DNA from: Chthoniobacterales bacterium
Lineage (GTDB): Bacteria > Verrucomicrobiota > Verrucomicrobiia > Chthoniobacterales > Chthoniobacteraceae
NCBI GenBank assembly: GCA_038207335.1
Contig: JBBQZX010000001.1
Span: 224,001 to 288,000, forward strand
DNA length: 64,000 nucleotides
Direction: 5' to 3'
Shown here: positions 21,485-34,422 of the stretch, piece after piece
How positions within the stretch are numbered: position 1 is the first letter of the stretch
Layout: each line of letters opens with the position of its first letter
Position numbers and translations under genes: made by a program
Notes under the pieces: model-generated
What the model was told of the DNA's origin: nothing
Database searches by the model: none
Seen by the model: only the letters and a program-made list of their open reading frames with translations

Positions 21485-24166
21485 ATGACATCAGCATCAC
21501 AGGATTCACCCGCAATCATCGGGCGATGGAATGTCTCACTCGATAGGCAAGGCGAGGCCTCCCGCGACGCGCTACGCCCGCTGGCTGAGCGGCATTGGTA
21601 TTGTGTCTATGCGTGGTGGCGGCGCGCAGGCGTGGATGCTGAAAAAGCAGACACTGCCACTCTCGCGTGCTTCACGCGCTGGCTCACGAGCGAGCCTCCT
21701 GCGCGGGAGGAAACCAATGCTACGCGGATGCGCGAATGGCTGCCCGCGCGCCTCGCGGAACTCGCCGAGCGTGGCGTAAAGCTGACCGATCCCGCCGCCA
21801 TCGCGATCGATCCCGAATCGGCCGAGCGCCGCTATGCCAGCGAGCCGGAAGGCGATCCCGACACCGTCTTCCACCGCCGCTGGGCGCTCACGATTCTGGA
21901 ATCCACGCACGACCTTTTGCGCGACGAACACGCCGCCGCGAATCGGGACGAGATGTTTGAGGATCTCGTTCCCTTCATCCGCTACGGCGGCACCGGCGAG
22001 GAGCGCTACAAGGCATTCGCCACGGCGCACGCGATGAGCGTGGGCGCGGCGCACCGGGCCGTGTTCGAGTTCCGCACGCGCTACCGCGAAGTCCTCCACG
22101 ATTTCATCCGCGACACGCTCGACGATGCCGCGGACCTCGCCAGCGAGATGACCTCCCTGCTCTGCGCGTGCGATTTCACCCCGCAGCAGGTCACGAGTCT
22201 CATGGCCGCCGCCGAGGACGACGGCGCACCCGCGGATCGCGTGGAGCATCCTCTCGCGCGCCGCCAGTTGCCCCCTGAGGAAATGCTCGCCCGCGCCATG
22301 CAGAGCGTCCAGATGAGCAGCGGCGGCGCGCACGGCTGGGAGCCCCCGACCGTCGAGGAAACTGCGCGGCTTTTCCCCGGCTACGAGGTGCTCGGCCTCC
22401 TCGGCCGCGGCGGCATGGGCGCGGTCTATCAGGCGCGGCAGACCTCGCTCGACCGACTCGTCGCCATCAAGCTCCTGCCGCTCGAGGTCAGCGTGGACCC
22501 CACTTTCGCCGACCGCTTCCGCCGCGAGGCGCGGGCGATGGCAAAGCTCAACCACCCGAACATCATCGCCGTCTTCGACTTCGGCACGACCATCGAGGGC
22601 CACCTCTTCATCGTCATGGAATACGTCGATGGCGCGAACCTCGCGTACATCATCCACCACAGCGGCCTCGACGCTGCGCAGTCGCTCTCCATCGTCGAGC
22701 AGGTCTGCTCTGCACTCGGCTACGCGCATGGCAAAGGCATCATCCACCGCGACATCAAGCCCGCCAACGTCATGATCGACACCGAAAGTCAGGTGAAGGT
22801 CGCCGACTTCGGCCTCGCCCGCCTCATCGACAACGCCGCGCCCGACCTCGGCCGCACCACGACCGGCACCGTCATGGGCACGCCCGATTACATGGCCCCC
22901 GAGCAGATGCGGGACATGAACGTCGATCACCGCGCCGACATCTACAGCCTCGGCGTCATGAGCTACGAAATGCTCTGCCGCGAAGTGCCAAAGGGCGCCT
23001 TCCGGCATCCCAGCGTCCGCACCGGCTGCGACCAGCGCATCGACCACATCGTCCTCAAGGCCATGCAGCAGGCCCCCGACCACCGCTACCAGAGCACGCA
23101 GGAGATGAAAGCAGACGTGCAAGCCGCGCGCACGCCGCGCATCGTCCCCGCACCGCAACCCGCCGCGCCGAGGCCAAAGCCACCCGCGCTCGCCCAGCGC
23201 GCGCTCGCCAAGCCCGTGCGTCCGTTCGCGCCATTGCCGCCGCCTGCGGCGAAAGGGCGCGCGCCATTGTACGTTGCCATCGCCGCCGCCATCATCGCGC
23301 TCATCGGCGGCGGTATCTATTTCGCAAAGGTGAAGCCCAACGCAATGACCCAAAACGCCACGAGCGCCCAGCTTCCCTCGCTCGCCGCCGCGACCAAGGA
23401 TGCACCGTTCGTGAACACCCTCGGCATGAAGTGCGTCCCCGTGCCAATCACCGGCGGGCCGACGGACGGGCAGCCCGTGCTCTTCAGCGTGTGGGAGACG
23501 CGCGTGCAGGACTACGAGGTATTTTCCCAGGAAACCATACGCCTCTGGCCAAAGGTCCAGTTCGAGCAGGGGCCGACGCATCCCGCAGTGAATGTGACAT
23601 GGGAGGATGCGACGGCATTCTGCGCGTGGCTCACCGAACGCGAGCGGAAGGTTGGTAAGATCAGTGCGGGCGAAGCCTACCGACTGCCGAGCGATCACGA
23701 GTGGAGCTGCGCCGTCGGCATTGGCGGGCAGGAAAATGCGGAGCGTCCCGCCGAAGAGAAGGTTGGGAAACTCGCGAATCTTCGTCCGTGGGGAATCGCG
23801 TGGCCGCCGCCGAAGGAAGCAGGAAATTACGGCTCGGAGGAGTTGAGGCGCGAAATCGAGACGGGCAAATTCGTTTCAGGTTATGGAGGCGTCATCGACG
23901 GATATTCGGATGGATTCGCGCACACCGCGCCGGTTGGGAGTTTCACGCCCAATGGGCTCGGCCTCTACGACCTCGGTGGGAATGCGTGGGAGTGGTGCGA
24001 AGACAGGTTCAACAGCCTACAACAGGACCGCGTGGAACGCGGAGCTTCGTGGGATAACCGCAACCCTGGGGAACTACTGGCGTCGCACCGCAATAAAAAT
24101 GCGTCCACCTTTCGCTCTCCCACCTCCGGCTTCCGCGTTGTTCTGGCGTCAGCGCCCTCTGGATAG
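21485..24166 (+). CDS. Fusion: degenerate ECF-sigma-like domain + Ser/Thr protein kinase + TM helix + FGE-sulfatase (CLec-fold) domain
   Basis: N-terminal HWYCVYAWWRR, AERRY, FHRRWA, FRTRYRE (PVC ECF pattern); LGRGGMGAVY, VAIK, HRDIKPAN, DFGLAR, GTPDYMAPE; TM helix; ATKDAPFVNTLGM, HPAVNVTW, RLPSDHEW, GLYDLGGNAWEW, RGASW, GFRVV. Confidence 0.88.
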   Translation: MTSASQDSPAIIGRWNVSLDRQGEASRDALRPLAERHWYCVYAWWRRAGVDAEKADTATLACFTRWLTSEPPAREETNATRMREWLPARLAELAERGVKLTDPAAIAIDPESAERRYASEPEGDPDTVFHRRWALTILESTHDLLRDEHAAANRDEMFEDLVPFIRYGGTGEERYKAFATAHAMSVGAAHRAVFEFRTRYREVLHDFIRDTLDDAADLASEMTSLLCACDFTPQQVTSLMAAAEDDGAPADRVEHPLARRQLPPEEMLARAMQSVQMSSGGAHGWEPPTVEETARLFPGYEVLGLLGRGGMGAVYQARQTSLDRLVAIKLLPLEVSVDPTFADRFRREARAMAKLNHPNIIAVFDFGTTIEGHLFIVMEYVDGANLAYIIHHSGLDAAQSLSIVEQVCSALGYAHGKGIIHRDIKPANVMIDTESQVKVADFGLARLIDNAAPDLGRTTTGTVMGTPDYMAPEQMRDMNVDHRADIYSLGVMSYEMLCREVPKGAFRHPSVRTGCDQRIDHIVLKAMQQAPDHRYQSTQEMKADVQAARTPRIVPAPQPAAPRPKPPALAQRALAKPVRPFAPLPPPAAKGRAPLYVAIAAAIIALIGGGIYFAKVKPNAMTQNATSAQLPSLAAATKDAPFVNTLGMKCVPVPITGGPTDGQPVLFSVWETRVQDYEVFSQETIRLWPKVQFEQGPTHPAVNVTWEDATAFCAWLTERERKVGKISAGEAYRLPSDHEWSCAVGIGGQENAERPAEEKVGKLANLRPWGIAWPPPKEAGNYGSEELRREIETGKFVSGYGGVIDGYSDGFAHTAPVGSFTPNGLGLYDLGGNAWEWCEDRFNSLQQDRVERGASWDNRNPGELLASHRNKNASTFRSPTSGFRVVLASAPSG

Positions 24167-24255
24167 CCAGCTCAGACAACAACCACGCTCACTACCACCA
24201 CGAAGGACGCGCCATTTGTGAACAGGGTCAGCTCGTGCTGCCTTGCGTGGATTCT

Positions 24256-24906
24256 TCAAAAGCTATCCGTCGGCGCGCGCCGATATTGTTCGCGGCGGCC
24301 GAGTTGGGCGGCGTGATGGACCAGATCTTTCGCCACGATCGAGGTGAAGAGCCCGACGCTGACACCCGCTCCGCGCAGCTTTTGGGCGACCCACAGGTTG
24401 CACATTTTCGGAAAGTAAAAGTGGCCGCGCGCGAGGTAGAAGCGGCTGTCTGGAAAGTAACCCGGGCCGATGGGAATCGGCTTCCCCGCTGGATCGAGGG
24501 CGAACGTGGCGTCGAATTCGCGGATGAGCGCACGGGCATTTTCTGCCGGGATGTCGAAGCGAATCACATCGCTGTGCGCAAATCTCCGCGCGAGCGCGCC
24601 GCGCACCGGGACGACATGCAGGGTGGTCGAATCGAGGCCGAAAATCGCGCGAAAGATCGTGAGGGGATCGACATGGCCTTGGTAGAAGCGGGATGCGCCC
24701 CAGCCGATGACGACGATGTCGGGGCGCGGGTCGGTGGTGATCATTTCCGCATGGGGAAAATCGCGCGCCCGGAAGGCGAGGGAGGAGTGAAAGCCATTGC
24801 TCACGAGCCACACGGGAAGCTCCGGATCCGACGGGCCGGCGATGCCGCCCGCCGCCCCGCAAAGCAAAACCGAGAGGCAAAGAACGAAAGCGCGCGACCG
24901 ATTCAT
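24256..24906 (-). CDS. DUF2459 family protein (exported)
   Basis: Signal peptide; SNGFHS, IGWG..FY, FYLARG, CNLWVAQKL. Confidence 0.75.
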   Translation of the reverse strand: MNRSRAFVLCLSVLLCGAAGGIAGPSDPELPVWLVSNGFHSSLAFRARDFPHAEMITTDPRPDIVVIGWGASRFYQGHVDPLTIFRAIFGLDSTTLHVVPVRGALARRFAHSDVIRFDIPAENARALIREFDATFALDPAGKPIPIGPGYFPDSRFYLARGHFYFPKMCNLWVAQKLRGAGVSVGLFTSIVAKDLVHHAAQLGRREQYRRAPTDSF

Positions 24907-24929
24907 GCGCGCACATTAGATACCCACCC

Positions 24930-25688
24930 GTGACATTGCCAAACGCCTCCGCGCCGACGATCAGCGTGATAATCCCCGTCTGGCGCGACCTCGAAGCGTT
25001 GCACGGCTTGGTGCCGTTTCTGCTATCGCAGCCCAGCGTGCGCGAGGTGATCGTCGCGCTCGCTGATGCCACGCCCGCGGCGCTCGCCACGGTGGAGCAT
25101 CTCGGCGCGCGAGTGATCGACGCGGGCACTCCAAACCGCGGCGCGCAGATGGATGCCGGTGCCGCCGGGGCCACCGGCGACTGGCTGCTCTTCCACCACG
25201 CCGATACCGAAATCACCGCCGCGCACATCGCCTCGCTCGCCGCCGTGTCGGACCGCGACGTGCCCGGCGGCGCGTTCTATCGCCGCTTCGATTCACGGCA
25301 TCCCCGGCTCATGTGGCTGGAGCCGATCGAGCGTTTCCGCAACCGCACCTCCGGCGCGCTCTACGGCGATCAGTCCATTTTCGCGCGCCGCGATGCCTTC
25401 AACCAACTCGGCGGCTTCCGCGGCCTGCCGCTCATGGAGGACGTGGATTTCACGCGCCGAATGCGCCGTGCCGGGCGCGTGATTTTACTCGATCCGCCGA
25501 TCGCCTCCTCGCCCCGCAAACACATCGCGCGCGGGTCTTGGCGCACCACTTTCCAAAACATCCTGCTGCTTGTGCTCTACTCGGTCGGCGTCTCACCGCG
25601 CCGTCTGCACGCATGGTATTACCCCGCATCTGCGGGAGAAACTTCGGACATTCGAGGGTCGCAGGTGGCGCGAGCGCCGAAGCCATGA
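24930..25688 (+). CDS. GT2 glycosyltransferase, TIGR04283-like (arsenosugar/ArsS-associated)
   Basis: ISVIIP, RGAQMDAGA, LLFHHADT, YGDQSIF, GGFRGLPLMEDVDF, SSPRK, L..WY. Confidence 0.85.
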   Translation: MTLPNASAPTISVIIPVWRDLEALHGLVPFLLSQPSVREVIVALADATPAALATVEHLGARVIDAGTPNRGAQMDAGAAGATGDWLLFHHADTEITAAHIASLAAVSDRDVPGGAFYRRFDSRHPRLMWLEPIERFRNRTSGALYGDQSIFARRDAFNQLGGFRGLPLMEDVDFTRRMRRAGRVILLDPPIASSPRKHIARGSWRTTFQNILLLVLYSVGVSPRRLHAWYYPASAGETSDIRGSQVARAPKP

Positions 25689-25694
25689 GATAAG

Positions 25695-27152
25695 ATGCTC
25701 GCCATGCCCGCCACCACCCCACAGCCTCCATCCAAATGGCGTGCCCGCTGGCACGCCTTTCGCCATCCCGTCGCCGAGGAAAAGGCCGCGATCCTGCGCG
25801 ACCGCTGGGCCTCGCTCCCGGCCGAGCTGCAGACGCCGAATCAAATCTCCGGACGGCATCTCACGCACTGCGGCTTCACGCTCGGCGCGAGCTTTTGCTC
25901 CTTCCACTGCACGCACTGCTACCTCCCGCAGAATGCCAACGACGTGCCGCTCCCATCGCTCGCGCAGATGAAAGACCAGATCGCTGCGAACCGCCGGATG
26001 CAGGGTCCGGGCGGCGGATTGCAGATCACGGGCGGCGACGTGGCCGACGCGTATTGGCGCAGCGGCCGGCAGGAGGAGCTAGTGGAAATCGTGCGCTTCG
26101 CCTACTCGACCGGCCTCGTGCCGATGCTGATGACCCACGGGCAGACGCTCATCGAGCACCCAGAGTTTTTAGAAAAGCTCGTCGTCGAAGGCGGCTTGCG
26201 GCAGGTCGCCGTGCATGTCGATATGACGCAGGCGGGCCGCCACGGATACCCGATCGGGCGGATCAAATCGGAGGCAGACTTGCATCCCGTGCGCGAGGCC
26301 TTCACCGAGCTCGGATGGCGCATCCGGGAGAAGACGGGCGCGGCGCTGGAGTTCGCGCACAACTGCACGGTCACGCGCAAGAACATCGATGGCGTGCCGG
26401 AGATCATCCGCTGGGCGCTCGCCGATCCGCGGCGCACGCAGCTCTGGCGGATGCTCAGCTTTCAGCCCGAGGCCGACACGGGCCGCACGATCTACTCCGA
26501 GCGCCCGATCACGCCGGCGCTGACTTGGGAGAAAATCTGCGAGGGCGTCGGCATGGACCTGCGCCGGGATGTCAGCATCTTCGGCCATCCCGACTGCAAC
26601 TCGTGGACTTCGCTGCTCGTCTCGCAGACGACCGGCGCGATCTTCCCCACGCTCCCCGACGACTCGAAATGGGACGCGATCCTCGGCCGCGTGCTCGAGC
26701 GCATCGGCGGCATTTCGTTGATGAACGACGACGCCGGTACGCCGCCATTTCGCATCCTCGGCGCGCTCGCGCACAATCCGCTGCTCGCGGTGAAGCTTCT
26801 CGCGTTCATGGCGAAATTCGCGGTCTCGGGCAAGATCCCCGCCGCCGTATCGCGCGATCTTTTGCGTGGAAAGGTGCACACCGTCGGGATCGGGATGCAC
26901 AATTTCATGGACGCCGCCGTCGTCGCCACCGCGGCGACCGACCCGGTCATCAAGTCGCGCCTCGACTCGTGCGTCTTCAAAGGCGCGGTGCGCGAAAACG
27001 GCGAGTGGACCGCCGTGCCGATGTGCCAGATGAATCAGGAGCGCTGGAGCAAAGTGTACGACGAACGCCTCGCCGATCCCGAGCTGCGGAATAAGCCCCA
27101 AGCCAACCGCATCCAAGCAACAGTGCCGCACGAAGAGCCGGTTGGCGTCTAA
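25695..27152 (+). CDS. Radical SAM protein of unknown function; C-terminal half resembles the Tes/MJ0619 family
   Basis: CSFHCTHC (CxxxCxxC), LQITGGD, SFQPEADTGR, HPDC, HNFMD, RLDSC, VPMCQMN. Confidence 0.8.
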   Translation: MLAMPATTPQPPSKWRARWHAFRHPVAEEKAAILRDRWASLPAELQTPNQISGRHLTHCGFTLGASFCSFHCTHCYLPQNANDVPLPSLAQMKDQIAANRRMQGPGGGLQITGGDVADAYWRSGRQEELVEIVRFAYSTGLVPMLMTHGQTLIEHPEFLEKLVVEGGLRQVAVHVDMTQAGRHGYPIGRIKSEADLHPVREAFTELGWRIREKTGAALEFAHNCTVTRKNIDGVPEIIRWALADPRRTQLWRMLSFQPEADTGRTIYSERPITPALTWEKICEGVGMDLRRDVSIFGHPDCNSWTSLLVSQTTGAIFPTLPDDSKWDAILGRVLERIGGISLMNDDAGTPPFRILGALAHNPLLAVKLLAFMAKFAVSGKIPAAVSRDLLRGKVHTVGIGMHNFMDAAVVATAATDPVIKSRLDSCVFKGAVRENGEWTAVPMCQMNQERWSKVYDERLADPELRNKPQANRIQATVPHEEPVGV

Positions 27153-27163
27153 TTTTCCAACAC

Positions 27164-28330
27164 ATGAACCCATCCGAAATGCCCGTCGAAACCGCCGTCA
27201 AACAACGCTACGCCGCAGGTGCGCAGGCGCAGGAAGCAGCGCTCTGCTGCCCGGTCGATTACGATCCGCAATATCTGAAAGTGATCCCGCAGGAAGTCAT
27301 CGAGCGCGATTACGGCTGCGGCGATCCGAGCAAGCATGTGCGCCGCGGAGAGACGGTGCTCGACCTCGGCAGCGGCACCGGAAAAATCTGCTTCATCACC
27401 TCGCAGGTCGTCGGACCGGAGGGCCGCGTGATCGGTGTGGACATGACCGACGCCATGCTCGAAGTCGCGCGCCGCAACGCGCCGATCGTCGCCGAGCGCA
27501 TCGGCCACGCGAACGTTGAATTTCGCAAAGGCCGCATCCAGGACCTCGCGCTCGATTTGGAAAAGCTCGACGCCGAGCTGAAGTCGCGTCCCATCGCGAG
27601 CGCCGACGCCTTTCTCGCCGCCGAAGACCTCGCGCAGGAACTGCGGCTCAAGCACCCGCTCGTCGCCACCGAATCCATCGACGTCGTCGTCTCGAATTGC
27701 GTGCTGAACCTCGTCGAGCCGCGCGCCAAGCGGCAGATGTTCGACGAGCTTTTCCGCGTCCTGAAAATCGGCGGACGCGCAGTGATCTCCGACATCGTGG
27801 CCGATGAAGACGTGCCAGAGGAAATGCAGAACGACCCCGAGCTCTGGAGCGGCTGCATCTCCGGCGCGCTCACCGAGGGCGATTTTCTCGAGGCATTCGA
27901 GAACGCCGGATTTTACGGAATGCGGATTCTGAAACGCGACGAGGAGCCGTGGCGCACGGTCGGCGGCATCGAGTTTCGCTCCGTCACGATCGAGGCGTGG
28001 AAAGGCAAACAGGGCGCGTGTTTCGAGCACAATCAGGCGATCGTTTATCGCGGTCCGTTCAAGGCGGTGCTCGACGACGACGACCATCACATCACGCGCG
28101 GCGTCCGCCATGCCGTGTGCGACAAGACGTTTCAGCTCTTTAAAAAAGAGCCGTATGCGGAGCACTTCGACTTCATCGAGCCGCTGACCCCGATCGCCCC
28201 GGAAGCCGCTCTGCCATTTGATTCCGGGCGATCGGAACTCCGGCATCCGCGCGAAACCAAGGGCCTCGACTACGACGCCACGAGCGAGGAATCGAGCTGC
28301 TGCGGCTCGGACGGCGGCGGTTGCTGCTGA
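27164..28330 (+). CDS. arsM: Arsenite S-adenosylmethionine methyltransferase-like protein
   Basis: LCCP, YGCGDP, LDLGSGTG, GVDMT, SNCVLNL, WSGCISGA (ArsM Cys positions present); Cys-rich C-terminus SCCG...GCC. Confidence 0.8.
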   Translation: MNPSEMPVETAVKQRYAAGAQAQEAALCCPVDYDPQYLKVIPQEVIERDYGCGDPSKHVRRGETVLDLGSGTGKICFITSQVVGPEGRVIGVDMTDAMLEVARRNAPIVAERIGHANVEFRKGRIQDLALDLEKLDAELKSRPIASADAFLAAEDLAQELRLKHPLVATESIDVVVSNCVLNLVEPRAKRQMFDELFRVLKIGGRAVISDIVADEDVPEEMQNDPELWSGCISGALTEGDFLEAFENAGFYGMRILKRDEEPWRTVGGIEFRSVTIEAWKGKQGACFEHNQAIVYRGPFKAVLDDDDHHITRGVRHAVCDKTFQLFKKEPYAEHFDFIEPLTPIAPEAALPFDSGRSELRHPRETKGLDYDATSEESSCCGSDGGGCC

Positions 28331-28334
28331 TGCG

Positions 28335-29291
28335 ATGAATCGGTTCGACACCGCCATCGCCGAACGCGGTCGCACACTGTATCGCGACGCCCCGGAGATT
28401 CTGCAAATCAACGTCGGCAAGCTGTGCAATCTCACCTGCTCGCACTGCCACGTGAATGCCGGACCGTCGCGCAAAGAGATCATGACGCGGGACACGCTCG
28501 ACCGGATTCTCGATTGGTTTGCCGACACCGACCTCCCGACGCTCGACCTCACTGGCGGCGCGCCGGAGATGATTCCCGACTTCCGCCACGCCATCGAGCG
28601 CGTCCGCGAAATGTCGCCGCGCCGCCGGATCATCGACCGCTGCAACCTCACGATTCTGCTGGAGCCCGGCTACGACGGACTCGCGGAATTTCTCGCCGAA
28701 AACGAAGTCGAGATCGTCGCCTCGATGCCGTGCTACTCGCCGGAAAACGTGAACGCGCAGCGCGGCGACGGCGTCTTCGATGGGAGCATCACCGCGCTGC
28801 AACTCCTTAACCGCCTCGGTTACGGCACGCGTCCCGAGCTCCCGCTGCATCTCGTCTATAACCCGAACGGCGCAAAGCTCCCCGGCCCGCAAGCCGAGCT
28901 CGAAGCCGACTACAAACGCGAACTCGCCGAGCATTTCGGCATCACGTTCAACAGCCTCTACACGATTACGAATCTCCCCATCTCGCGCTTCGCCAGCTAC
29001 CTGCGGCACGAGGGGAAATACGACGAATATCTCGCGCTGCTGATCGAGTCTTTCAACCCCGCGACTGTCGATGGCCTCATGTGCCGCAACACGATCAACG
29101 TGAGTTGGCAGGGCGAAACGCACGACTGCGACTTCAACCAAATGCTCAAGCTCCCGCTCGCCGGAAACGGCCGCGCTTTCGTCTGGGACCTCGATCCCGC
29201 CACGCTCGCAGGTCTCCCCATCGCCACCGCCGACCACTGCTTCGGCTGCACCGCAGGCGCCGGCTCGAGCTGCGGCGGCTCACTCCTCTAA
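28335..29291 (+). CDS. arsS: Arsenosugar biosynthesis radical SAM protein (TIGR04167-like, DUF3641 C-terminus)
   Basis: LQINVGKLCNLTCSHCHV, DLTGGAPE, DRCNLT, ASMPCY, QRGDGVF, LVYNP, LMCR, DCDFNQ, HCFGCTAGAGSSCGG; ATG at 28335. Confidence 0.9.
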   Translation: MNRFDTAIAERGRTLYRDAPEILQINVGKLCNLTCSHCHVNAGPSRKEIMTRDTLDRILDWFADTDLPTLDLTGGAPEMIPDFRHAIERVREMSPRRRIIDRCNLTILLEPGYDGLAEFLAENEVEIVASMPCYSPENVNAQRGDGVFDGSITALQLLNRLGYGTRPELPLHLVYNPNGAKLPGPQAELEADYKRELAEHFGITFNSLYTITNLPISRFASYLRHEGKYDEYLALLIESFNPATVDGLMCRNTINVSWQGETHDCDFNQMLKLPLAGNGRAFVWDLDPATLAGLPIATADHCFGCTAGAGSSCGGSLL

Positions 29292-29292
29292 A

Positions 29293-30138
29293 ATGAAAAC
29301 AAACAACCTGAAATCGCTCGTCGTCATCGCCTGCGCGGTCGCGTTCATCGCCATCACCACCGGCTGCGCTACGGCCAAGGAAAAGCCGATCACCGTCGCA
29401 TTCCCCGCCGGCATCCACCACGAAGCGTGGGACGCGCTCGTGAAGAAATACGTGAACGAAAAAGGCCTCGTGGCCTACGCGAAATGGAAGGCAAACGCCG
29501 CCGATCAAAAAGCGCTCGCCGACTACCTTGCTCAGTTCGGGGCGAAGCCCGAGCCGGCGGCAAAAGGCGACGAGCTCGCGGCTTCCGGGATAAACGCCTA
29601 CAACGCCTTCGCGATCCACACGATCCTTGAAAACTACCCGGTCGAAAGCATCCACAAAATCTCCGGCGTCTTTGAAAATCGCGCCCATCTCATCGGCGGC
29701 AAAAAAGTCGCCCTCAACGACATCGAGCACGGCACCATGCGCCCGCTGCTCGGATACCGCGCGCACGCCGCGCTCGTCTGCTGCGCGCGCAGTTGCCCGC
29801 CGCTCCGGCGCTTCGCCTACACCGCCGCCGGCCTCGATGGCCAAATCGAAGTCGCCTATACGAACTGGCTCGCCCGCGAGGATCTCAACAAATACGAGCC
29901 CGACAAAAACCAGGTCGAGATTTCGAGCATCTTCAAGTGGTTCAAGGAGGACTTCGAAGCCGCCGGGGGCGTGCCGAAAATCCTCGGGATGTATGGCCCG
30001 CTCGCTCAGCGCCCGTTCCTCGCGAAAGGCGGCTACAAGATCGAAAACCTTCCTTACCACTGGGGTCTGAACGACCAAAGCGCCCTCGGCAAAGACTACT
30101 CGAAGAGCGACCTGATCTTCGACCACATCTTCAAGTAA
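29293..30138 (+). CDS. DUF547 domain lipoprotein
   Basis: Lipobox TTGC; GLVAY, INAYNA, LNDIEH, HAALVCCARSCPPL, SSIFKWFKEDF, YHWGLND. Confidence 0.85.
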   Translation: MKTNNLKSLVVIACAVAFIAITTGCATAKEKPITVAFPAGIHHEAWDALVKKYVNEKGLVAYAKWKANAADQKALADYLAQFGAKPEPAAKGDELAASGINAYNAFAIHTILENYPVESIHKISGVFENRAHLIGGKKVALNDIEHGTMRPLLGYRAHAALVCCARSCPPLRRFAYTAAGLDGQIEVAYTNWLAREDLNKYEPDKNQVEISSIFKWFKEDFEAAGGVPKILGMYGPLAQRPFLAKGGYKIENLPYHWGLNDQSALGKDYSKSDLIFDHIFK

Positions 30139-30182: not shown

Positions 30183-31196
30183 CTACCGCCCGAAGAACCC
30201 TCGCAGCTCCGCTCGGAATTTTTCCGCTTCCTCGAGATGCACGATGTGGTCGGAGCGCTCGAACCAGATTAGCCGCTTCCCATGCGGTGCGCGGAGTTTT
30301 GCGAAATAGTCCGCGCCGAGCGTCGGACTTAGGACAGTGTCGCGGCGGCCGAGGAAAAACGCGACCGGCACGTCGATTTGCGGTACCTCGTATTCGAGAT
30401 CGTGGCTCCACGCATCGTGCTCCAGCGCGTGTCCGGAAAACTTGATCCCGCGCAGCGTGTCGAGGTCGTCCGCAAGCGAGTAATACGGCGATTGCAGCCC
30501 GAGCCAAATGTATCGCGAGAGCGTCATCTCGTGCTTCACCGGCGGCTGAACAGCTTTCGTGATCTTGTTCACTTCGCGTTCGAGTTTCCGCGTGGCATAC
30601 GGCGGCTCGCCGATCTCGTGGAGCCGCTCCGCGACGTTTTGAAAGCCCCGCGCCTCGGCCACCGCGATGCCCTCGCGATGCAGCAGGAGCTCCGAGTGCG
30701 GCACACTCACGAGCTGCGAGATGCCGATGTATCCGCGATACAGCTCCGGCACCCGGTGCAGCGTTTCGACTGCGACAAGGGTGCCCCACGAAAAGCCGAC
30801 GAGGTCGATCTTCTTCTGCCCGAATCGTCGCATGAGCAGCCGCGTCAACTGCTCCGCATCGCGTGAGATTTTTGCGAGGCTCATTTCGCTGAGCGGGATG
30901 CCGGGATCGAACGATTTACCCGCGCCGCGCTGGTCCCAATACACCATTGTGAAGTCGCTCTCGAGTTCTGCGTTGTAGTGCGAGAACGGCATTTCCGGCA
31001 GGCCCGGACCGCCGTGGATGAAGAGCAGCACAGGATTTGCGGCATTTCGACCGCGGATGAAAATGGTCTGCTCTCTGCCGCCGAGATTCACCTTTTCCTC
31101 GCACGAAATGCCGGGTGCCGCGAGCGGTGGCTGCTTCGTCGTCACGCATCCGATAAGAAAAGTCGCTGCGATAAGCGCGATCGGGCGGAGGTTCAT
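30183..31196 (-). CDS. Alpha/beta-hydrolase lipoprotein (proline iminopeptidase-like family)
   Basis: MNLRPIALIAATFLIGC lipobox; HGGPG, WDQRGAGKS, GFSWG, GRRD, SDH. Confidence 0.85.
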   Translation of the reverse strand: MNLRPIALIAATFLIGCVTTKQPPLAAPGISCEEKVNLGGREQTIFIRGRNAANPVLLFIHGGPGLPEMPFSHYNAELESDFTMVYWDQRGAGKSFDPGIPLSEMSLAKISRDAEQLTRLLMRRFGQKKIDLVGFSWGTLVAVETLHRVPELYRGYIGISQLVSVPHSELLLHREGIAVAEARGFQNVAERLHEIGEPPYATRKLEREVNKITKAVQPPVKHEMTLSRYIWLGLQSPYYSLADDLDTLRGIKFSGHALEHDAWSHDLEYEVPQIDVPVAFFLGRRDTVLSPTLGADYFAKLRAPHGKRLIWFERSDHIVHLEEAEKFRAELRGFFGR

Positions 31197-32308
31197 TTCG
31201 ATGTTTGGTAGCGCGCGAGGAAGGCGCGATCGATGCGATCTTTCAGCCAAAACGAAGCGCGCCCGAGCCAGTGAAATCCACGCCAGCGGGCGAGTCCAAT
31301 GCCGCTGCCGAGATTGAGGATGAGGAGACAATGGGCTTGCGGATGAAACTCGCGGAGCGGATCGCCCGAGAGAGTCGCGAGTAGATTGTGGAAGATCACG
31401 GGCGCTTGCCGGATGGCATAAACGCCGACTTTTGACAGGTCGCGGTCGCGCATTTTCACGCAGTCGCCGCCGCCAAAGATGCGGTCGTCGCCGGTCGAAC
31501 AGAGGTGATGGTCGATGAGCAGCTCGCAGCGGTCGCTGACCGGCAGCCCTGTCTCCGTGAGTATTCGCGGCGGATGAAGTCCCGTGGCATTGACGAGAAA
31601 ATCGAACGGCACGCGGTCTCCGCGCGTGGTGACCGCGTGACGATCCTCGATGCGTGTGACGCCGGAATCGAGTTGCACGGCGATCTCGTGTTTTGCCAGC
31701 CAACGCTCCAGCGTGCGGGCACCGCCTTTTGAAAACCCCGAGAGCAGTCGCTTGCCTCGCGCGAGAATTGTGATCTCCGCGCGCTCACCGAGCAGCGCGC
31801 GGACATTCGCCGCGATCTCGGAGCCGGACGCGCCGCCGCCCGCGATGACTACGCGCGGCGAGCCGGGCGCGGCTTCGAGTTCGCGGCGCAGGCGCGCGAG
31901 TTCGTGGAGCGGCTTGATCGGGAAGACGCGATCGGTCGCGCCGGGGATCGCGTGGACTTCGCTGCCGAGATTGAGCGACAGGACGTCGTAGGAAAGTGAC
32001 TCGCCGCCCGCCAGTCGCACGGTGCGCTTGCGCGGGTCGATCGACTCAGCGCGGTCTCGGATGAAGCGGCATCCAGCGCCGCCTCGCTTCACGAGCGCGG
32101 CAATATCGACCTGATCCTGCTCCGGCGTGTAGCAGCCGCCGACGACACCAGTCGCGAGGCCGGAATACCAAAAGTTTTCCGGCGCCACGACGACGAGTTC
32201 GAAGCCGCGTTGCGTGAATTCCGCTGCGCGGTTGATCGTGTAAAGATGCGCATGTCCAGCGCCGATGAGCAGCGCGCGCTTGCGCCGCGGATCGGCTTGA
32301 GTGCTCAT
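31193..32308 (-). CDS. FAD-dependent pyridine nucleotide-disulfide oxidoreductase (type resembling the SelD N-terminal domain)
   Basis: IGAGHAHL, YSG, YDVLSLNLGS, PIKP, GGGASGSE, GGGDC, KVGVYAIRQ, WLKDRIDRAF; ATG at 32308. Confidence 0.8.
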   Translation of the reverse strand: MSTQADPRRKRALLIGAGHAHLYTINRAAEFTQRGFELVVVAPENFWYSGLATGVVGGCYTPEQDQVDIAALVKRGGAGCRFIRDRAESIDPRKRTVRLAGGESLSYDVLSLNLGSEVHAIPGATDRVFPIKPLHELARLRRELEAAPGSPRVVIAGGGASGSEIAANVRALLGERAEITILARGKRLLSGFSKGGARTLERWLAKHEIAVQLDSGVTRIEDRHAVTTRGDRVPFDFLVNATGLHPPRILTETGLPVSDRCELLIDHHLCSTGDDRIFGGGDCVKMRDRDLSKVGVYAIRQAPVIFHNLLATLSGDPLREFHPQAHCLLILNLGSGIGLARWRGFHWLGRASFWLKDRIDRAFLARYQTSK

Positions 32309-32922
32309 TTCGAGGACTCCAGATGCGGAAACGCCGCGACCGCGCGGAGCCAACTCGCGGCATCGTCCACGTCTTCCACCGCGTCGAGTTCGCGCCATTT
32401 TAGACCCGCTCCGCGAAGTCGATCGCGCGTCTCTTGGAGCACGCTCGCTGTGCTCCAGGCGATCTCGCGAAACAACTCGGGTTGCGTGGAACGGAGTGCG
32501 AGAAGGCAATATCCGCCGTCATCGGCGGGCACGATCACGGCGTCGTAATTGAGGAGTTTCGCGACCTGCCGAAACGTTCCCTCCGACAAATACGGGCAAT
32601 CTCCTCCGATGAAAACGAGCGGCGCGAAGTTGCGGGTGAAGTGCGCGAGCATCGCCGCGGAAAGCCGCGCGCCGAGGTCGCCGTTGCTTTGAGCGGAATA
32701 GTCGTGCGCGTCGCCGAGCCACTCGCGCATCGCGGGTTCCGCATCGGCGGGCGCGAGGCAAATGTGCGTGCGCCAGCCGCGAGGGATTTCCCGGAGCTGA
32801 TGCTCGACGAGGCGGCGATAGGCGTCCGTTGCAGCAGGGAAGCCAATCTCGCGGGCGAGCCGCGTTTTCACGAAGCCTTCGACGGGCGCTTTGAGCATCA
32901 GCAGCACCGTCGGAGCTGTCAC
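32305..32922 (-). CDS. TIGR04282-like / DUF2064 glycosyltransferase (CofC-like fold, ArsS-associated)
   Basis: KAP..GFVKTRLA, Q..GDLGARL, IGGDCP, PADDGGY, IAWST, DVDD. Confidence 0.88.
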   Translation of the reverse strand: MTAPTVLLMLKAPVEGFVKTRLAREIGFPAATDAYRRLVEHQLREIPRGWRTHICLAPADAEPAMREWLGDAHDYSAQSNGDLGARLSAAMLAHFTRNFAPLVFIGGDCPYLSEGTFRQVAKLLNYDAVIVPADDGGYCLLALRSTQPELFREIAWSTASVLQETRDRLRGAGLKWRELDAVEDVDDAASWLRAVAAFPHLESSK

Positions 32923-33470
32923 TTGAGGAAATCGAAGAACGGCGAGCTTTTCAACTGCGCGCGTTTCTTTTCATCGAGCAGCTTTCCAAATTTCTCATTG
33001 TACGGATGCACTCTCTGGGCGGGCTGGCCGTCGGCCACTATCGGGCGGTTTTCGTTTGCCCATTGAAAGATCGAGCCCTCGAGATTCGAGACGTTCGGCA
33101 CGCCGGCTTTGATGAGCTTTTCTGCCAAACTGGAGGAGCGATATCCGACCGAGCAATAGGTTACGACTGGGCGGCCCTTCGGCAGCGTCGGCAGCACGTC
33201 GGTGAGGTTTGCTGAAGGATCTACGCGGCTCGCGCCGACTAGATGGCTCACGTCGAACTCGGCTTTCGTGCGCACGTCGAGCAGCAGCGGCTTCTCGCGA
33301 TTCGAGTCGTGGAGCCACTTCGCGAGCTCGGCGGTGGAGAGTTGAGGCACGTCGCGAAATTTATCGCGCACGGTTTGTTTCACCTTGGCGAAAGCCGCGT
33401 CGTCCGCGCGCACGAAGCCGGTGCAGAGGCCGACGAGAAAGATGATCTGCGAAGGCTTGAGGAAGCTCAT
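32919..33470 (-). CDS. Exported rhodanese-like domain protein
   Basis: Signal peptide; LLDVR..EFDVSHL.GA, YCSVGYRS active-site loop, NLEGSIFQWANE, VHPY. Confidence 0.85.
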   Translation of the reverse strand: MSFLKPSQIIFLVGLCTGFVRADDAAFAKVKQTVRDKFRDVPQLSTAELAKWLHDSNREKPLLLDVRTKAEFDVSHLVGASRVDPSANLTDVLPTLPKGRPVVTYCSVGYRSSSLAEKLIKAGVPNVSNLEGSIFQWANENRPIVADGQPAQRVHPYNEKFGKLLDEKKRAQLKSSPFFDFLK

Positions 33471-34325
33471 TTAGTTGCGCTCGTTCGCCTGCATCTCACG
33501 TTCCTGCCACGGATGCGTGGCGAAGAACGGATTGTTAATTTTTTCCTGCTCGACGGTCGAGAGGGGGCCATGGCCGGGGCAGAGAATTGTCGGGTCGGGG
33601 AGGGTGAGGATTTTCGCGAGGTTGTTTTTGAGCGCGTCGGTGTAGGAAACCATGCCGCCGCCCATCGAGCCCGCGAAGACGGCGTCGCCGACGATGGCGA
33701 GCGGCAGTGCGAGGCCGGTGATGACGTAGGTGATGCCGCCGACCGAATGGCCGCTCGTGAGGAGCGTCTTGATCGTGAGATTTCCGACCGTGAATTCGCG
33801 GCCTTCCGCAAACGACTCGGCACCGTCGAGCGGTTCTCTTTCTCCGACAAAAACGGATGCGCCGGTCTGCTCGACGAGGCGGTCGAGGTCGAAAATGTGG
33901 TCGCCGTGCGTGTGGGTGAGGAGGATGGATTTCAGCGTGAGGTCGTGCGCTTTCAAGGCGTCGAGGATGCCGGAGCAATCCGCGCCGGTGTCGAACGCTG
34001 CGGCTTCACGCGCCGCTGTATCCCAGACGAGATAGGCGTTCACTTTCATGTCCTCGTACGAGGTGTTGAATTGCGCGAGACCCTCGAGAGTGATGGGCGC
34101 GGGCTGCCATGATTTGTGACCTGACGCCGCGAGAGCGTCGGCTCCGAGGCCAAGCACTGGAGCCACTTTGCGGGCGGCGACTTCATTGAAATGACCCTCG
34201 CGCAGACGTTGGATTTCGAGTGCTTGGATGCCAGTCTGGACGGAGAGTTCGTTGTCGGAAAGTTTGAGGCCGCGCATCGCTTTGGAGATGATGTCGCTGG
34301 CGTTGTCTTCGAGTGGGATGCGCAT
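33471..34325 (-). CDS. MBL-fold metallo-hydrolase with N-terminal HTH-like domain
   Basis: THTHGDH, GHS, GDAVF, PGHG motifs; N-terminal helical extension. Confidence 0.85.
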   Translation of the reverse strand: MRIPLEDNASDIISKAMRGLKLSDNELSVQTGIQALEIQRLREGHFNEVAARKVAPVLGLGADALAASGHKSWQPAPITLEGLAQFNTSYEDMKVNAYLVWDTAAREAAAFDTGADCSGILDALKAHDLTLKSILLTHTHGDHIFDLDRLVEQTGASVFVGEREPLDGAESFAEGREFTVGNLTIKTLLTSGHSVGGITYVITGLALPLAIVGDAVFAGSMGGGMVSYTDALKNNLAKILTLPDPTILCPGHGPLSTVEQEKINNPFFATHPWQEREMQANERN

Positions 34326-34422
34326 GATGGGATGTTGAAACATCGCACGCGAACGGGCGAGCGCGCGGGTGATAACGGGTGCACGGGTGCGGGCTCCGCG
34401 GAGTTCGCGGGCCGACGCGCCG

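Follow-up and report, generated by a model that had tools for sequence, protein, structure and literature searches.

A Tes-like radical SAM enzyme encoded in an arsenosugar-type operon of a Chthoniobacterales bacterium: a candidate for a route to arsenic-containing lipids

Two groups of radical SAM enzymes frame the analysis reported here. GDGT-MAS (Tes; M. jannaschii MJ0619; PDB 7TOL and 7TOM; family model NF045702), an enzyme of archaeal lipid synthesis, is described as abstracting a hydrogen from a terminal lipid carbon, with the radical being parked on a cluster sulfur (PMC9433317). The same account gives it two N-terminal metal domains, a rubredoxin (C9X2C12X20C33X2H36) and an [Fe4S4]N domain (C73, C77, C80 and a His), and states that Met439 and Tyr459 do not vary at all across 1000 archaeal homologues (PMC9433317). 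ArsL and ArsS, on the other hand, are reported to add carbon radicals to As(III), forming C-As bonds, and in ArsL a C-terminal RCCLKC motif is reported to bind As(III) (10.1101/2024.02.01.577332).

The window analyzed here is a stretch of 64,000 nucleotides (64% GC) from a Chthoniobacterales bacterium (GCA_038207335.1, contig JBBQZX010000001.1, positions 224,001 to 288,000), in which an open reading frame on the + strand (25695..27152), starting with ATG, encodes a radical SAM protein of 485 aa that we refer to as rSAMx (also P0001). Its GC content at third codon positions is 0.86, which in DNA of 64% GC matches the expectation for a real gene. All of the motifs named in an earlier sequence-only reading of this DNA were found in the translation, namely CSFHCTHC (C68, C72 and C75), SFQPEADTGR, HPDC (C301), HNFMD (H402), RLDSC (C426) and VPMCQMN (C444).

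The gene is the second in a tight operon of five, in which the successive intergenic gaps are 6, 11, 4 and 1 bp. The operon opens with a TIGR04283-like GT2 glycosyltransferase (24930..25688, + strand; 181.3 bits against a TIGR04283 cut-off of 182, with a match to PF00535), and rSAMx is followed, on the same strand, by an ArsM-like SAM methyltransferase with a Cys-rich tail at its end (27164..28330), by the arsenosugar radical SAM enzyme ArsS (28335..29291; TIGR04167, 429.5 bits, cut-off 300; DUF3641) and by a DUF547 protein (29293..30138; PF04784, 63.2 bits) with a signal-peptide-like N-terminus and an invariant CX4CP. The ArsM-like protein matches Methyltransf_31 and lies below the cut-offs of the more specific models, of which NF040538 is the best (336.1 bits against 500), followed by PRK11873 (204.9 against 263) and NF038099 (124.5 against 400). 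ArsS most probably begins with the ATG at 28335, 4 bp past the stop of the ArsM-like gene. Family models and coordinates thus bear out the neighbors that had been claimed for rSAMx, with the glycosyltransferase 6 bp upstream, the ArsM-like gene 11 bp downstream, and ArsS next.

Convergent with the operon is a gene for a TIGR04282-family arsenosugar-associated transferase (32305..32922, - strand; match at window positions 32356-32904, 162.7 bits, cut-off 134), which a profile search of the contigs of the source genome placed at G000:C1:256356-256904 (-). With ArsS, the TIGR04283-like protein and the TIGR04282 protein, the window and genome carry an arsenosugar-type set, and contig C10 of the same genome holds a second TIGR04283 gene (199.2 bits) together with MerA-like and VTT genes. 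An open reading frame on the + strand at 24235-24933 was rejected as a gene; it had no family match, and the real gene there encodes a DUF2459 protein on the minus strand.

A profile built from 29 rSAMx sequences matched 7TOL with an E value of 7.1e-27 over profile positions 53-438, the alignment extending to residue 502 of the 526 in the chain, while the next match, SkfB, had an E value of 5.6e-7. A search of the PDB with the single sequence (phmmer) gave only spurious pentatricopeptide matches, and the profile was required. The AlphaFold model of rSAMx (pLDDT 91.1) likewise retrieved 7TOL with Foldseek (E 5.7e-15, TM 0.58; runner-up E 4.9e-7, TM 0.34), and VIA aligned 352 residues of GDGT-MAS with model residues 35-471 at Z 30.1, an rmsd of 3.5 A and 22% identity, the runner-up fold having Z 17.8. 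GDGT-MAS is therefore the closest solved relative of rSAMx, in the C-terminal cluster domain as well as in the radical SAM core. The likeness to Tes/MJ0619, which had been proposed from the order of motifs, is backed by both the profile and the structural comparison, the best structural match being GDGT-MAS and not a protein outside the Tes-like fold. Among the matches listed, 4 of 120 rSAMx homologues carry an old MJ0619 annotation (JGI naming).

The rSAMx family is real and conserved: a database search recovered 635 proteins at E <= 0.001, and 466 representative clusters turned up in a set of 1.84 billion. Its members carry conserved cysteines for two predicted Fe-S clusters. The CX3CX2C radical SAM cluster motif (C68, C72 and C75; 25896..25919, + strand) is invariant in all 29 aligned relatives. 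The C-terminal domain (residues 297-447; 26583..27035, + strand), whose counterpart in the alignment with GDGT-MAS is the [Fe4S4]C domain, contains the predicted ligands of an auxiliary [4Fe-4S] cluster, C301 (29/29), C426 (28/29) and C444 (28/29). It also contains the near-invariant H298 and H402, the latter present in 28/29 rows. The complete list of cysteines in rSAMx is 59, 68, 72, 75, 224, 282, 301, 426 and 444; beyond the cluster ligands only C59 is conserved (24/29 rows), and as it is the sole cysteine ahead of the radical SAM motif, the N-terminal Cys-rich metal sites of Tes are missing, as had been noted. Neither the As(III) sites known from ArsM nor ArsL's RCCLKC tail has a counterpart in rSAMx, as the 29-row alignment shows no Cys pair or triad of that kind. 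As read from the sequence, helices 349-359 and 362-377 are hydrophobic, and they are the one hint at a long hydrophobic tunnel to the 5'-carbon of SAM such as is expected of Tes/GDGT-MAS.

To place the locus in its genomic context we used a sample of 301 genomes from the same order as the source, of which 50 contain rSAMx. A TIGR04283-like gene is found in all 50, DUF547 in 49 and ArsS in 43, while the corresponding numbers among the 251 genomes that lack rSAMx are 57, 22 and 57; in 18 genomes rSAMx and ArsS are on one contig and no more than 10 kb apart. Viewed from the other side, rSAMx is present in just 43 of the 100 ArsS-positive genomes, and it is therefore an optional branch. The coupling extends to gene fusions. 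The glycosyltransferase and rSAMx are joined in P0110, P0002 and P0264 (230 bits) and in L111 (719 aa), L112 (738 aa) and L117 (798 aa), rSAMx and DUF547 share a single open reading frame in P0163, and the locus in G278 reads ArsM, MIP channel, ArsS, glycosyltransferase~rSAMx fusion, VTT, MerA-like, DUF547, TIGR04283. These data demonstrate a tight genomic coupling of rSAMx to the arsenosugar-type set of ArsS, TIGR04282, TIGR04283 and DUF547 genes, and a role for rSAMx in an arsenosugar-type system is well supported. Its constant partners, which the sequence-only reading had not singled out, are DUF547 and the TIGR04283-like glycosyltransferase.

The linkage to arsM and arsS anticipated in that reading is partly supported: it holds within the order and is rare in the distant clade. 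Loci of relatives were collected with an 18-sequence sub-alignment, and their open reading frames (57-76% GC) were called with GC3 weighting, the calling of longest open reading frames having yielded antisense artefacts. About half of the close-clade loci have no ars genes inside the fetched flanks. For the distant, Actinomycetota-like clade (30-38% identity), ArsS is near 3 of 80 loci and ArsM near 2 of 80; where both flanks of a distant locus extend to 4 kb or more, each is found at 2 of 17. Even within the order the linkage is incomplete: ArsM was screened in 5 of the 7 rSAMx-positive genomes that have no ArsS match, and neither ArsS nor ArsM-like genes were found in four of these, G059, G065, G165 and G288, which are 91-97% complete. 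Two of the four, G059 and G165, also keep the glycosyltransferase fusion and the VTT, MerA-like, DUF547 and TIGR04282/TIGR04283 genes.

The constant partner in the distant relatives is not an ars gene; it is the exported DUF547 protein, which is near 62 of 80 loci. The relatives of this protein share an invariant CX4CP, with two invariant cysteines, nearly all have signal-peptide-like N-termini, and 9 of 24 have a lipobox; the prediction from sequence is export for DUF547 and a cytoplasmic location for rSAMx. Lgt-like genes adjoin distant members in 25 of 80 loci, which might have been taken as a sign of lipid chemistry, but given the lipoboxes they are more simply read as serving the processing of DUF547 lipoproteins. 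No fold relatives of DUF547 were found with Foldseek (best E 1.7) or VIA (best Z 4.3 over 48,161 chains), and none of the literature titles listed, which concern plants, parasites and phages, gave a bacterial function for it.

Overall, rSAMx is a likely candidate for attaching arsenic to lipid tails or for tailoring them in some other way. Our preferred reading, which we put forward tentatively, is that rSAMx forms an arsenic-containing lipid by joining a carbon of a lipid-like alkyl chain to trivalent (methyl)arsenic. The enzyme would abstract hydrogen from an unactivated carbon of the chain; the auxiliary cluster (C301, C426 and C444, H402 taking the place of the labile Met439) would hold or relay the radical, as in GDGT-MAS; and the carbon radical would then be trapped on a trivalent (methyl)arsenic species to give the carbon-arsenic bond. 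Handling of the product at the membrane would then fall to the fused or adjacent glycosyltransferase, the DedA/VTT membrane protein, the MerA-like flavoprotein and the exported DUF547 protein. A lipid chain is proposed as the substrate on the basis of the homology with GDGT-MAS and the hydrophobic helices of the C-terminal domain, and arsenic as the radical acceptor by analogy to the C-As chemistry of ArsS and ArsL. Several observations argue against this proposal: the module is kept in the four genomes in which ArsS and ArsM were not detected, ars genes are seldom near rSAMx in the distant clade, the sequence has no Cys pair or triad like an As(III) site, and fewer than half of the ArsS-positive genomes have rSAMx. 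Furthermore, where the length of the chains in natural arsenic fatty acids has been explained, it was by a starter unit carrying the arsenic and not by functionalization of the terminus. A bolder version is doubtful. In it, the rSAMx family would constitute a third, mechanistically distinct class of C-As-forming radical SAM enzymes, one that activates the inert terminal carbon of a lipid chain in the way of tetraether synthase and makes arsenic hydrocarbons as well as arsenic fatty acids, and the exported DUF547 protein would serve it as a dedicated partner in the envelope.

The retention of the module in genomes without detected ArsM and ArsS is also what one might see if rSAMx carried out Tes-type chemistry on carbon only, coupling or tailoring alkyl tails through a C-C bond, cross-link or similar, with ArsM and ArsS alone making the As-C bonds. 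The substrate would then be an arsenosugar lipid, or the carrier lipid of the glycosyltransferase/DedA/DUF547 module, and we regard this as possible though rather doubtful. rSAMx has the architecture of GDGT-MAS, down to the three cysteines for the auxiliary cluster that serves C-C coupling; the GT2 to which rSAMx is fused has weaker matches to polyprenyl-phosphate sugar transferases (AglJ and PpgS); acyltransferase genes adjoin rSAMx in L019 and L021; and the module includes a VTT/DedA gene, although its sole NCBIfam match, to the undecaprenyl-phosphate transporter UptA, is a distant likeness at most (20 bits, cut-off 250). However, we know of no membrane-spanning or tail-linked arsenolipid, the tight nesting of rSAMx in ArsS- and DUF547-positive genomes would be left unexplained, and the Met439 and Tyr459 that are invariant in the archaeal enzymes are replaced. 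The same glycosyltransferase fusion, together with translational coupling, suggests that the two enzymes act in turn on a single small molecule, and so could instead indicate re-use of the Tes-like fold on a polar intermediate of the arsenosugar-type pathway, for example the ArsS product, an adenosyl or ribosyl arsenical, or else the donor of the fused glycosyltransferase. The identity to GDGT-MAS of merely 22% is consistent with such a change of substrate, as is the fact that the top NCBIfam-scoring relatives besides Tes are TrsS selenoproteins, whose substrate is not known. We nonetheless consider a non-lipid substrate unlikely, as the entire C-terminal helical domain, which forms the lipid pockets in GDGT-MAS, is kept and confidently modelled with its hydrophobic helices, and the module occurs without ArsS.

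The near-constant presence of DUF547, in 49/50 rSAMx-positive genomes and at 62/80 distant loci, raises the question of whether the DUF547 protein is itself the substrate, a residue (in CX4CP, for example) being modified by rSAMx prior to export in the manner of the anaerobic sulfatase-maturating enzymes. The P0163 open reading frame, which holds both domains, and the two invariant cysteines of DUF547 would fit such a role. Yet 22 genomes have DUF547 without rSAMx, and thus DUF547 does not need rSAMx; the nearest fold belongs to a lipid enzyme rather than to an RRE- or SPASM-containing peptide maturase; the glycosyltransferase fusion points to small-molecule chemistry; and C-P-P-L-R in the window copy, which could be read as a formylglycine-type CxPxR, was discarded as such a motif because it is not conserved. 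Such a maturase role is improbable. Finally, rSAMx could be a general bacterial synthase of membrane-spanning lipids, of the brGDGT or diabolic-acid type, with an incidental arsenic neighborhood. Bacterial Tes homologues have been proposed to function in brGDGT synthesis (PMC8941075), and the many close-clade loci without ars genes in their fetched flanks are consistent with this. It is very improbable given the strong phyletic nesting with TIGR04283 (50/50), DUF547 (49/50) and ArsS (43/50), and given that NF045702 misses rSAMx while matching a different locus of the genome (C37, 93 bits); the rSAMx family would also fail the E < 1e-50 filter described in PMC8941075.

Arsenolipids, some of which are cytotoxic, occur widely in marine food webs, and to our knowledge no enzyme is known for their formation. 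A 2024 study still refers to "several yet unknown pathways" (PMC11009773). Our literature searches turned up no publication that places a Tes-like enzyme in arsenic clusters, and the terms "arsenic" and "arseno" have 0 occurrences in the text of a review from 2026 on radical SAM enzymes that modify lipids (PMC13459092). In rSAMx there is a concrete, cloneable and testable candidate for a route to arsenic-containing lipids, and one that comes with a defined set of partners in the glycosyltransferase, DedA/VTT protein, MerA-like flavoprotein and DUF547 protein. If it does represent a third C-As-forming class, rSAMx would be the long-sought arsenic hydrocarbon and arsenic fatty acid synthase; whatever its substrate, it is a minimal bacterial version of tetraether synthase with two predicted clusters, and as such is useful for learning how an auxiliary cluster handles alkyl radicals.

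Compared with the known systems, rSAMx is by far most like GDGT-MAS in structure. It has the radical SAM core, three conserved cysteines placed as in the [Fe4S4]C domain, where a cluster is predicted, and the FMD, R..C and P.C..N motifs in the same order. It differs in being bacterial and encoded in an arsenosugar-type operon, in having neither the rubredoxin nor the [Fe4S4]N domain, and, by our own count on the 7TOL profile alignment, in the replacement of Met439 by His402 (His in 28/29 rows) and of Tyr459 by Gly430, a position at which V, L, G, A, I and M, none of them Tyr, cover 28/29 rows. The Tes model NF045702 (cut-off 450 bits) gave no match to rSAMx at E <= 0.001, nor at the locus in a whole-genome search, and together with the missing N-terminal domains and the two replacements this rules out orthology with Tes. 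Distant rSAMx relatives score as well against TrsS (NF045646) as against Tes (11 of 14 scanned, maximum 99.6 bits), but the family scores are far under the cut-off of 490, and the rSAMx of the window has no match at all; TrsS, a radical SAM (seleno)protein, is itself no more than listed in PMC13188914. Orthology with ArsS or ArsL is likewise ruled out, as neither family model (TIGR04167 or NF040542, respectively) matched rSAMx in the family-model scan. Unlike ArsS, rSAMx has no DUF3641 domain, and the true ArsS is encoded two genes downstream; unlike ArsL, it has no RCCLKC tail, its last cysteine being C444 with none at the C-terminus. What it shares with both is that it is a radical SAM enzyme encoded beside ArsM, and the chemistry proposed for it would, by analogy, be the same in principle, the addition of a carbon radical to As(III), except that the radical would reside on a substrate carbon following hydrogen abstraction rather than on a fragment of SAM.

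rSAMx (protein P0001) is encoded from an ATG start at 25695-27152 (+) as 485 amino acids, with a third-codon-position GC of 0.86, and is the second gene in a tight, co-directional five-gene operon. The gene 6 bp upstream (24930-25688, +) encodes a TIGR04283-like GT2 glycosyltransferase that falls just short of the family cut-off (181.3 of 182 bits), and the one 11 bp downstream (27164-28330, +) an ArsM-like methyltransferase, whose best model, NF040538, gives 336 bits where 500 are required. ArsS follows (28335-29291, +; TIGR04167, 429.5 bits, cut-off 300), the ATG at 28335 most likely being its start and leaving a 4-bp gap, and a DUF547 protein (29293-30138, +) ends the operon after a further 1 bp. 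Both the placement of rSAMx between glycosyltransferase and arsM and the radical SAM motifs quoted in the sequence-only reading were recovered, the gaps and family matches agreeing and all of the motifs being found in the translation. The best NCBIfam model for the ArsM-like protein is of the arsinothricin type, the arsenosugar-type model scoring only 124.5 bits, and the protein has a Cys-rich end, C-G-S-D-G-G-G-C-C (28301-28330, +).

Just upstream of the operon is a gene for an 893-residue protein (21485-24166, +) in which a C-terminal FGE-sulfatase/SUMF1-like domain (PF03781, 97 bits) is fused to a Ser/Thr protein kinase domain (PF00069, 180.8 bits), followed by a DUF2459/TIGR02117-like gene (24256-24906, -) that lies beneath a longer, probably spurious, plus-strand ORF (24235-24933); its homologues adjoin the rSAMx cluster in loci L022 and L024. 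Convergent with the operon, at 31193-34343 (-), are genes for a Pyr_redox_2 flavoprotein, a TIGR04282-family transferase (32356-32904, -, 2.2 kb past the operon; 162.7 bits, cut-off 134), a rhodanese and a metallo-beta-lactamase-fold protein. Elsewhere in the same genome, contig C10 carries a second TIGR04283 gene (199.2 bits) that adjoins genes for a VTT/DedA membrane protein and a MerA-like flavoprotein disulfide reductase; these are the remainder of the usual rSAMx module, lying apart from the window operon.

Searched alone against Pfam, rSAMx gave a single weak match, PF04055 at 24.8 bits where the gathering score is 29.5, and no NCBIfam model matched it better than E 6.7e-5, so that the ArsL, ArsS, TrsS and Tes models all miss it. 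At E <= 0.001 it has 635 relatives in the database, the top 120 of them 69-83% identical. The family is a small one: a search of 1.84 billion proteins gave 466 representative clusters. A profile from 29 diverse full-length members (alignment A1) matched the tetraether-lipid synthase GDGT-MAS (Tes; PDB 7TOL/7TOM) with E 7.1e-27, profile positions 53-438 on chain positions 110-502, the second-best match being SkfB (E 5.6e-7). An AlphaFold model of rSAMx built on A1 (pLDDT 91.1, pTM 0.90) again placed GDGT-MAS first, both in Foldseek (7TOL, E 5.7e-15, TM 0.58; DesII next, E 4.9e-7, TM 0.34) and in VIA-align (Z 30.1, rmsd 3.5 Å, 22% identity over 352 aligned residues, model 35-471 on chain 59-499), where viperin gave a core-only match (Z 17.8). 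The likeness to Tes/MJ0619, which the sequence-only reading had drawn from the order of motifs, is thus borne out by profile and by fold.

Of 14 distant family members scanned, 8 gave weak scores with the Tes model and 11 with the TrsS model, in every case well short of the cut-off. In the ESM Atlas, 18% of the proteins in one look-alike cluster carry an MJ0619-type zinc ribbon, and JGI gives four of the best 120 homologues an old MJ0619 annotation, since corrected. When the window's own genome was searched as a whole, the Tes model did not match the window rSAMx and matched a second locus, on contig C37, in an 804-residue open frame (93, 30 and 21 bits); the NF045702 matches of this more Tes-like frame (C37:26542-27885, +, outside the window) include the N-terminal zinc-ribbon region.

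We examined the neighbours of close relatives (49-84% identical) by tblastn at 30 loci in GTDB species genomes, 16 of which have flanks of 4 kb or more on each side. DUF547 was found at 16 of the 30 loci (11 of the 16 with long flanks), the TIGR04283-like glycosyltransferase at 15 (10), ArsM at 10 (8), ArsS at 9 (8), and the MerA-like flavoprotein and VTT at 7 each (6 each), the fullest cluster comprising glycosyltransferase, rSAMx, ArsM, ArsS, a true TIGR04283 protein, MerA-like, VTT, DUF547 and DUF1223. All loci come from MAGs labelled Verrucomicrobiota save L013, labelled Alphaproteobacteria, whose layout, coordinates and identities are those of L014 from a Chthoniobacter MAG of the same study, probably through a binning or labelling error. 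In genome G278 (locus L117) ArsM and ArsS are separated by a gene for a MIP-family channel (6434-7312; TIGR00861, 185 bits), which could be an arsenite entry route and which lies immediately ahead of a fused glycosyltransferase-rSAMx ORF.

The same 301 genomes of the order were then queried with rSAMx, ArsS, DUF547 and the TIGR04283-like protein and the tables compared by hand; the figures are counts rather than statistics, the genomes being related and not independent. rSAMx was matched in 50 genomes. ArsS was matched in 100 (43/50 with rSAMx against 57/251 without), DUF547 in 71 (49/50 against 22/251) and the TIGR04283-like protein in 107 (50/50 against 57/251); without the unpublished genome G173, positive for all four, these become 42/49, 48/49 and 49/49. 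The sole rSAMx-positive genome lacking DUF547, G254, has a fragmented rSAMx, and ArsS occurred in 61 of 71 DUF547-positive genomes against 39 of 230 DUF547-negative ones. Taken family by family, the enrichment was strong in f6 (18/18 against 2/12) and absent in f14 (10/13 against 18/26). The pattern is nested, ArsS and TIGR04283 being widest, DUF547 narrower and rSAMx narrowest, which fits rSAMx as an optional late branch of an arsenosugar-type system.

Seven rSAMx-positive genomes (G059, G153, G045, G065, G165, G203 and G288) gave no ArsS match, and a search for ArsM in five of them found it in G153 only. Two of these genomes, G059 (96% complete, a single contig) and G165, encode glycosyltransferase-rSAMx fusions, of 719 and 738 residues, together with VTT, MerA-like, DUF547 and either TIGR04282 (177 bits) or TIGR04283 (213 bits); such modules count against strict arsenic dependence. 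In G059 (L111, 8859-9794) and G153 (L116, 9185-10129) rSAMx is directly followed by a third radical SAM gene, a small one (311-314 residues; Rv1681-like, 88-90 bits; TIGR04167 only 52 bits), which, at the usual place of ArsS, may stand in for it.

At 80 metagenome loci of more distant relatives (30-39% identity to rSAMx, GC 42-76%; neighbours by tblastn), 17 of them with flanks of 4 kb or more on each side, DUF547 was again the commonest neighbour (62/80; 15/17), followed by Lgt-like (25/80; 7/17), VTT (13/80; 8/17), glycosyltransferase (11/80; 4/17), MerA-like flavoprotein (10/80; 5/17), rhodanese (6/80; 4/17), ArsS (3/80; 2/17) and ArsM (2/80; 2/17), with further thiol-redox neighbours (DsbD_N, Thioredoxin_9, AhpC, DCC1 and CMD). 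In the wider family, single ORFs join the radical SAM protein to DUF547 through a lipobox-like linker (P0163), to a full TIGR04283 domain (P0264, 230 bits), to an AglJ-like GT2 (P0155) and to a thioredoxin-like (seleno)protein domain (P0150). The arsM/arsS linkage by which the sequence-only reading proposed to judge homologues is partly supported: within the order 43 of 50 rSAMx genomes have ArsS and 18 have both on one contig within 10 kb, and among the distant loci either gene is seldom nearby.

The DUF547 proteins are predicted to be exported; their N-termini resemble signal peptides, and 9 of 24 relatives carry a lipobox. CX4CP is invariant among them, and they also have INAYNA and YDW motifs. 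The DUF547 model is confident (pLDDT 90.3) and without a match among solved structures, the top Foldseek hit having E 1.7 and the top VIA hit, among 48,161 chains, Z 4.3. The family-wide core is a putatively cytoplasmic Tes-like enzyme with a predicted exported, Cys-bearing DUF547 protein, membrane and redox helpers often being present. The arsenic genes are an attachment to this core in some lineages, most clearly in the window's own.

The data establish for rSAMx its fold, two cluster-binding motifs and a place in an arsenosugar-type gene neighbourhood, and its chemistry is directly testable. The original observation is confirmed, and the interpretation offered with it partly supported. Terminal C-As bonds are found in arsenic fatty acids and hydrocarbons of natural origin. 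By analogy with GDGT-MAS, in which the terminal lipid carbon lies 3.5 Å from the 5'-carbon (PMC9433317), the 5'-deoxyadenosyl radical of rSAMx would take a hydrogen atom from an unactivated carbon in a hydrophobic chain. The radical would then be passed to, or held at, an auxiliary cluster with three Cys ligands, where His402 replaces the labile Met, and a trivalent arsenical might quench it to give such a bond, the neighbouring ArsM-like enzyme supplying or finishing methyl groups. As(III) is described as quenching the adenosyl radical in ArsS and the aminocarboxypropyl radical in ArsL (10.1101/2024.02.01.577332).

We lean slightly towards a lipid-like substrate within the arsenosugar-type system, and hold quenching on the arsenical, proposed by these analogies, to be less likely than not. 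The weightiest rival, carbon-only tailoring of the tails of an arsenosugar lipid or carrier lipid, comes only a little below it. That the substrate is a polar pathway intermediate seems improbable, maturation of DUF547 by rSAMx decidedly so, and an arsenic-independent synthesis of membrane-spanning lipids the least probable of all.

We found no description of this family in the main texts of the literature on arsenosugar and arsenolipid radical SAM enzymes, glycosyltransferases, ArsS, Tes homologues and pathways, and a 2026 review of lipid-modifying radical SAM enzymes (PMC13459092) contains neither 'arsenic' nor 'arseno'. Besides its radical SAM cluster, GDGT-MAS carries a rubredoxin iron and two further clusters, [Fe4S4]N and [Fe4S4]C, which makes four metal sites in all; [Fe4S4]C is held by three Cys and the labile Met439 (PMC9433317). 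C59, in contrast, is the sole Cys of rSAMx ahead of the radical SAM motif, so both N-terminal metal sites are absent, as the sequence-only reading had held. Within A1, C68, C72, C75 and C301 are conserved in 29 of 29 rows, C426 and C444 in 28, H298 in 26 and C59 in 24. Residue numbers in the paper and in the PDB construct differ by 20, as derived from C102, C105, N108 and A109 on the profile alignment. On that basis Met439 corresponds to His402 (His in 28 of 29 rows) and Tyr459 to Gly430 (V, L, G, A, I or M in 28 of 29, none of these Tyr), whereas both residues are described as completely conserved across 1000 archaeal homologues (PMC9433317). Orthology with Tes is ruled out by the missing N-terminal sites, the replaced Met439 and Tyr459 and the miss by the Tes model. 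rSAMx would also fail the filter (E < 1e-50) with which Zeng et al. selected the bacterial Tes homologues proposed for brGDGT synthesis (PMC8941075). It is a distinct, unpublished Tes-like radical SAM family, predicted to bind two clusters where GDGT-MAS has four metal sites, and tied to an arsenosugar-type system.
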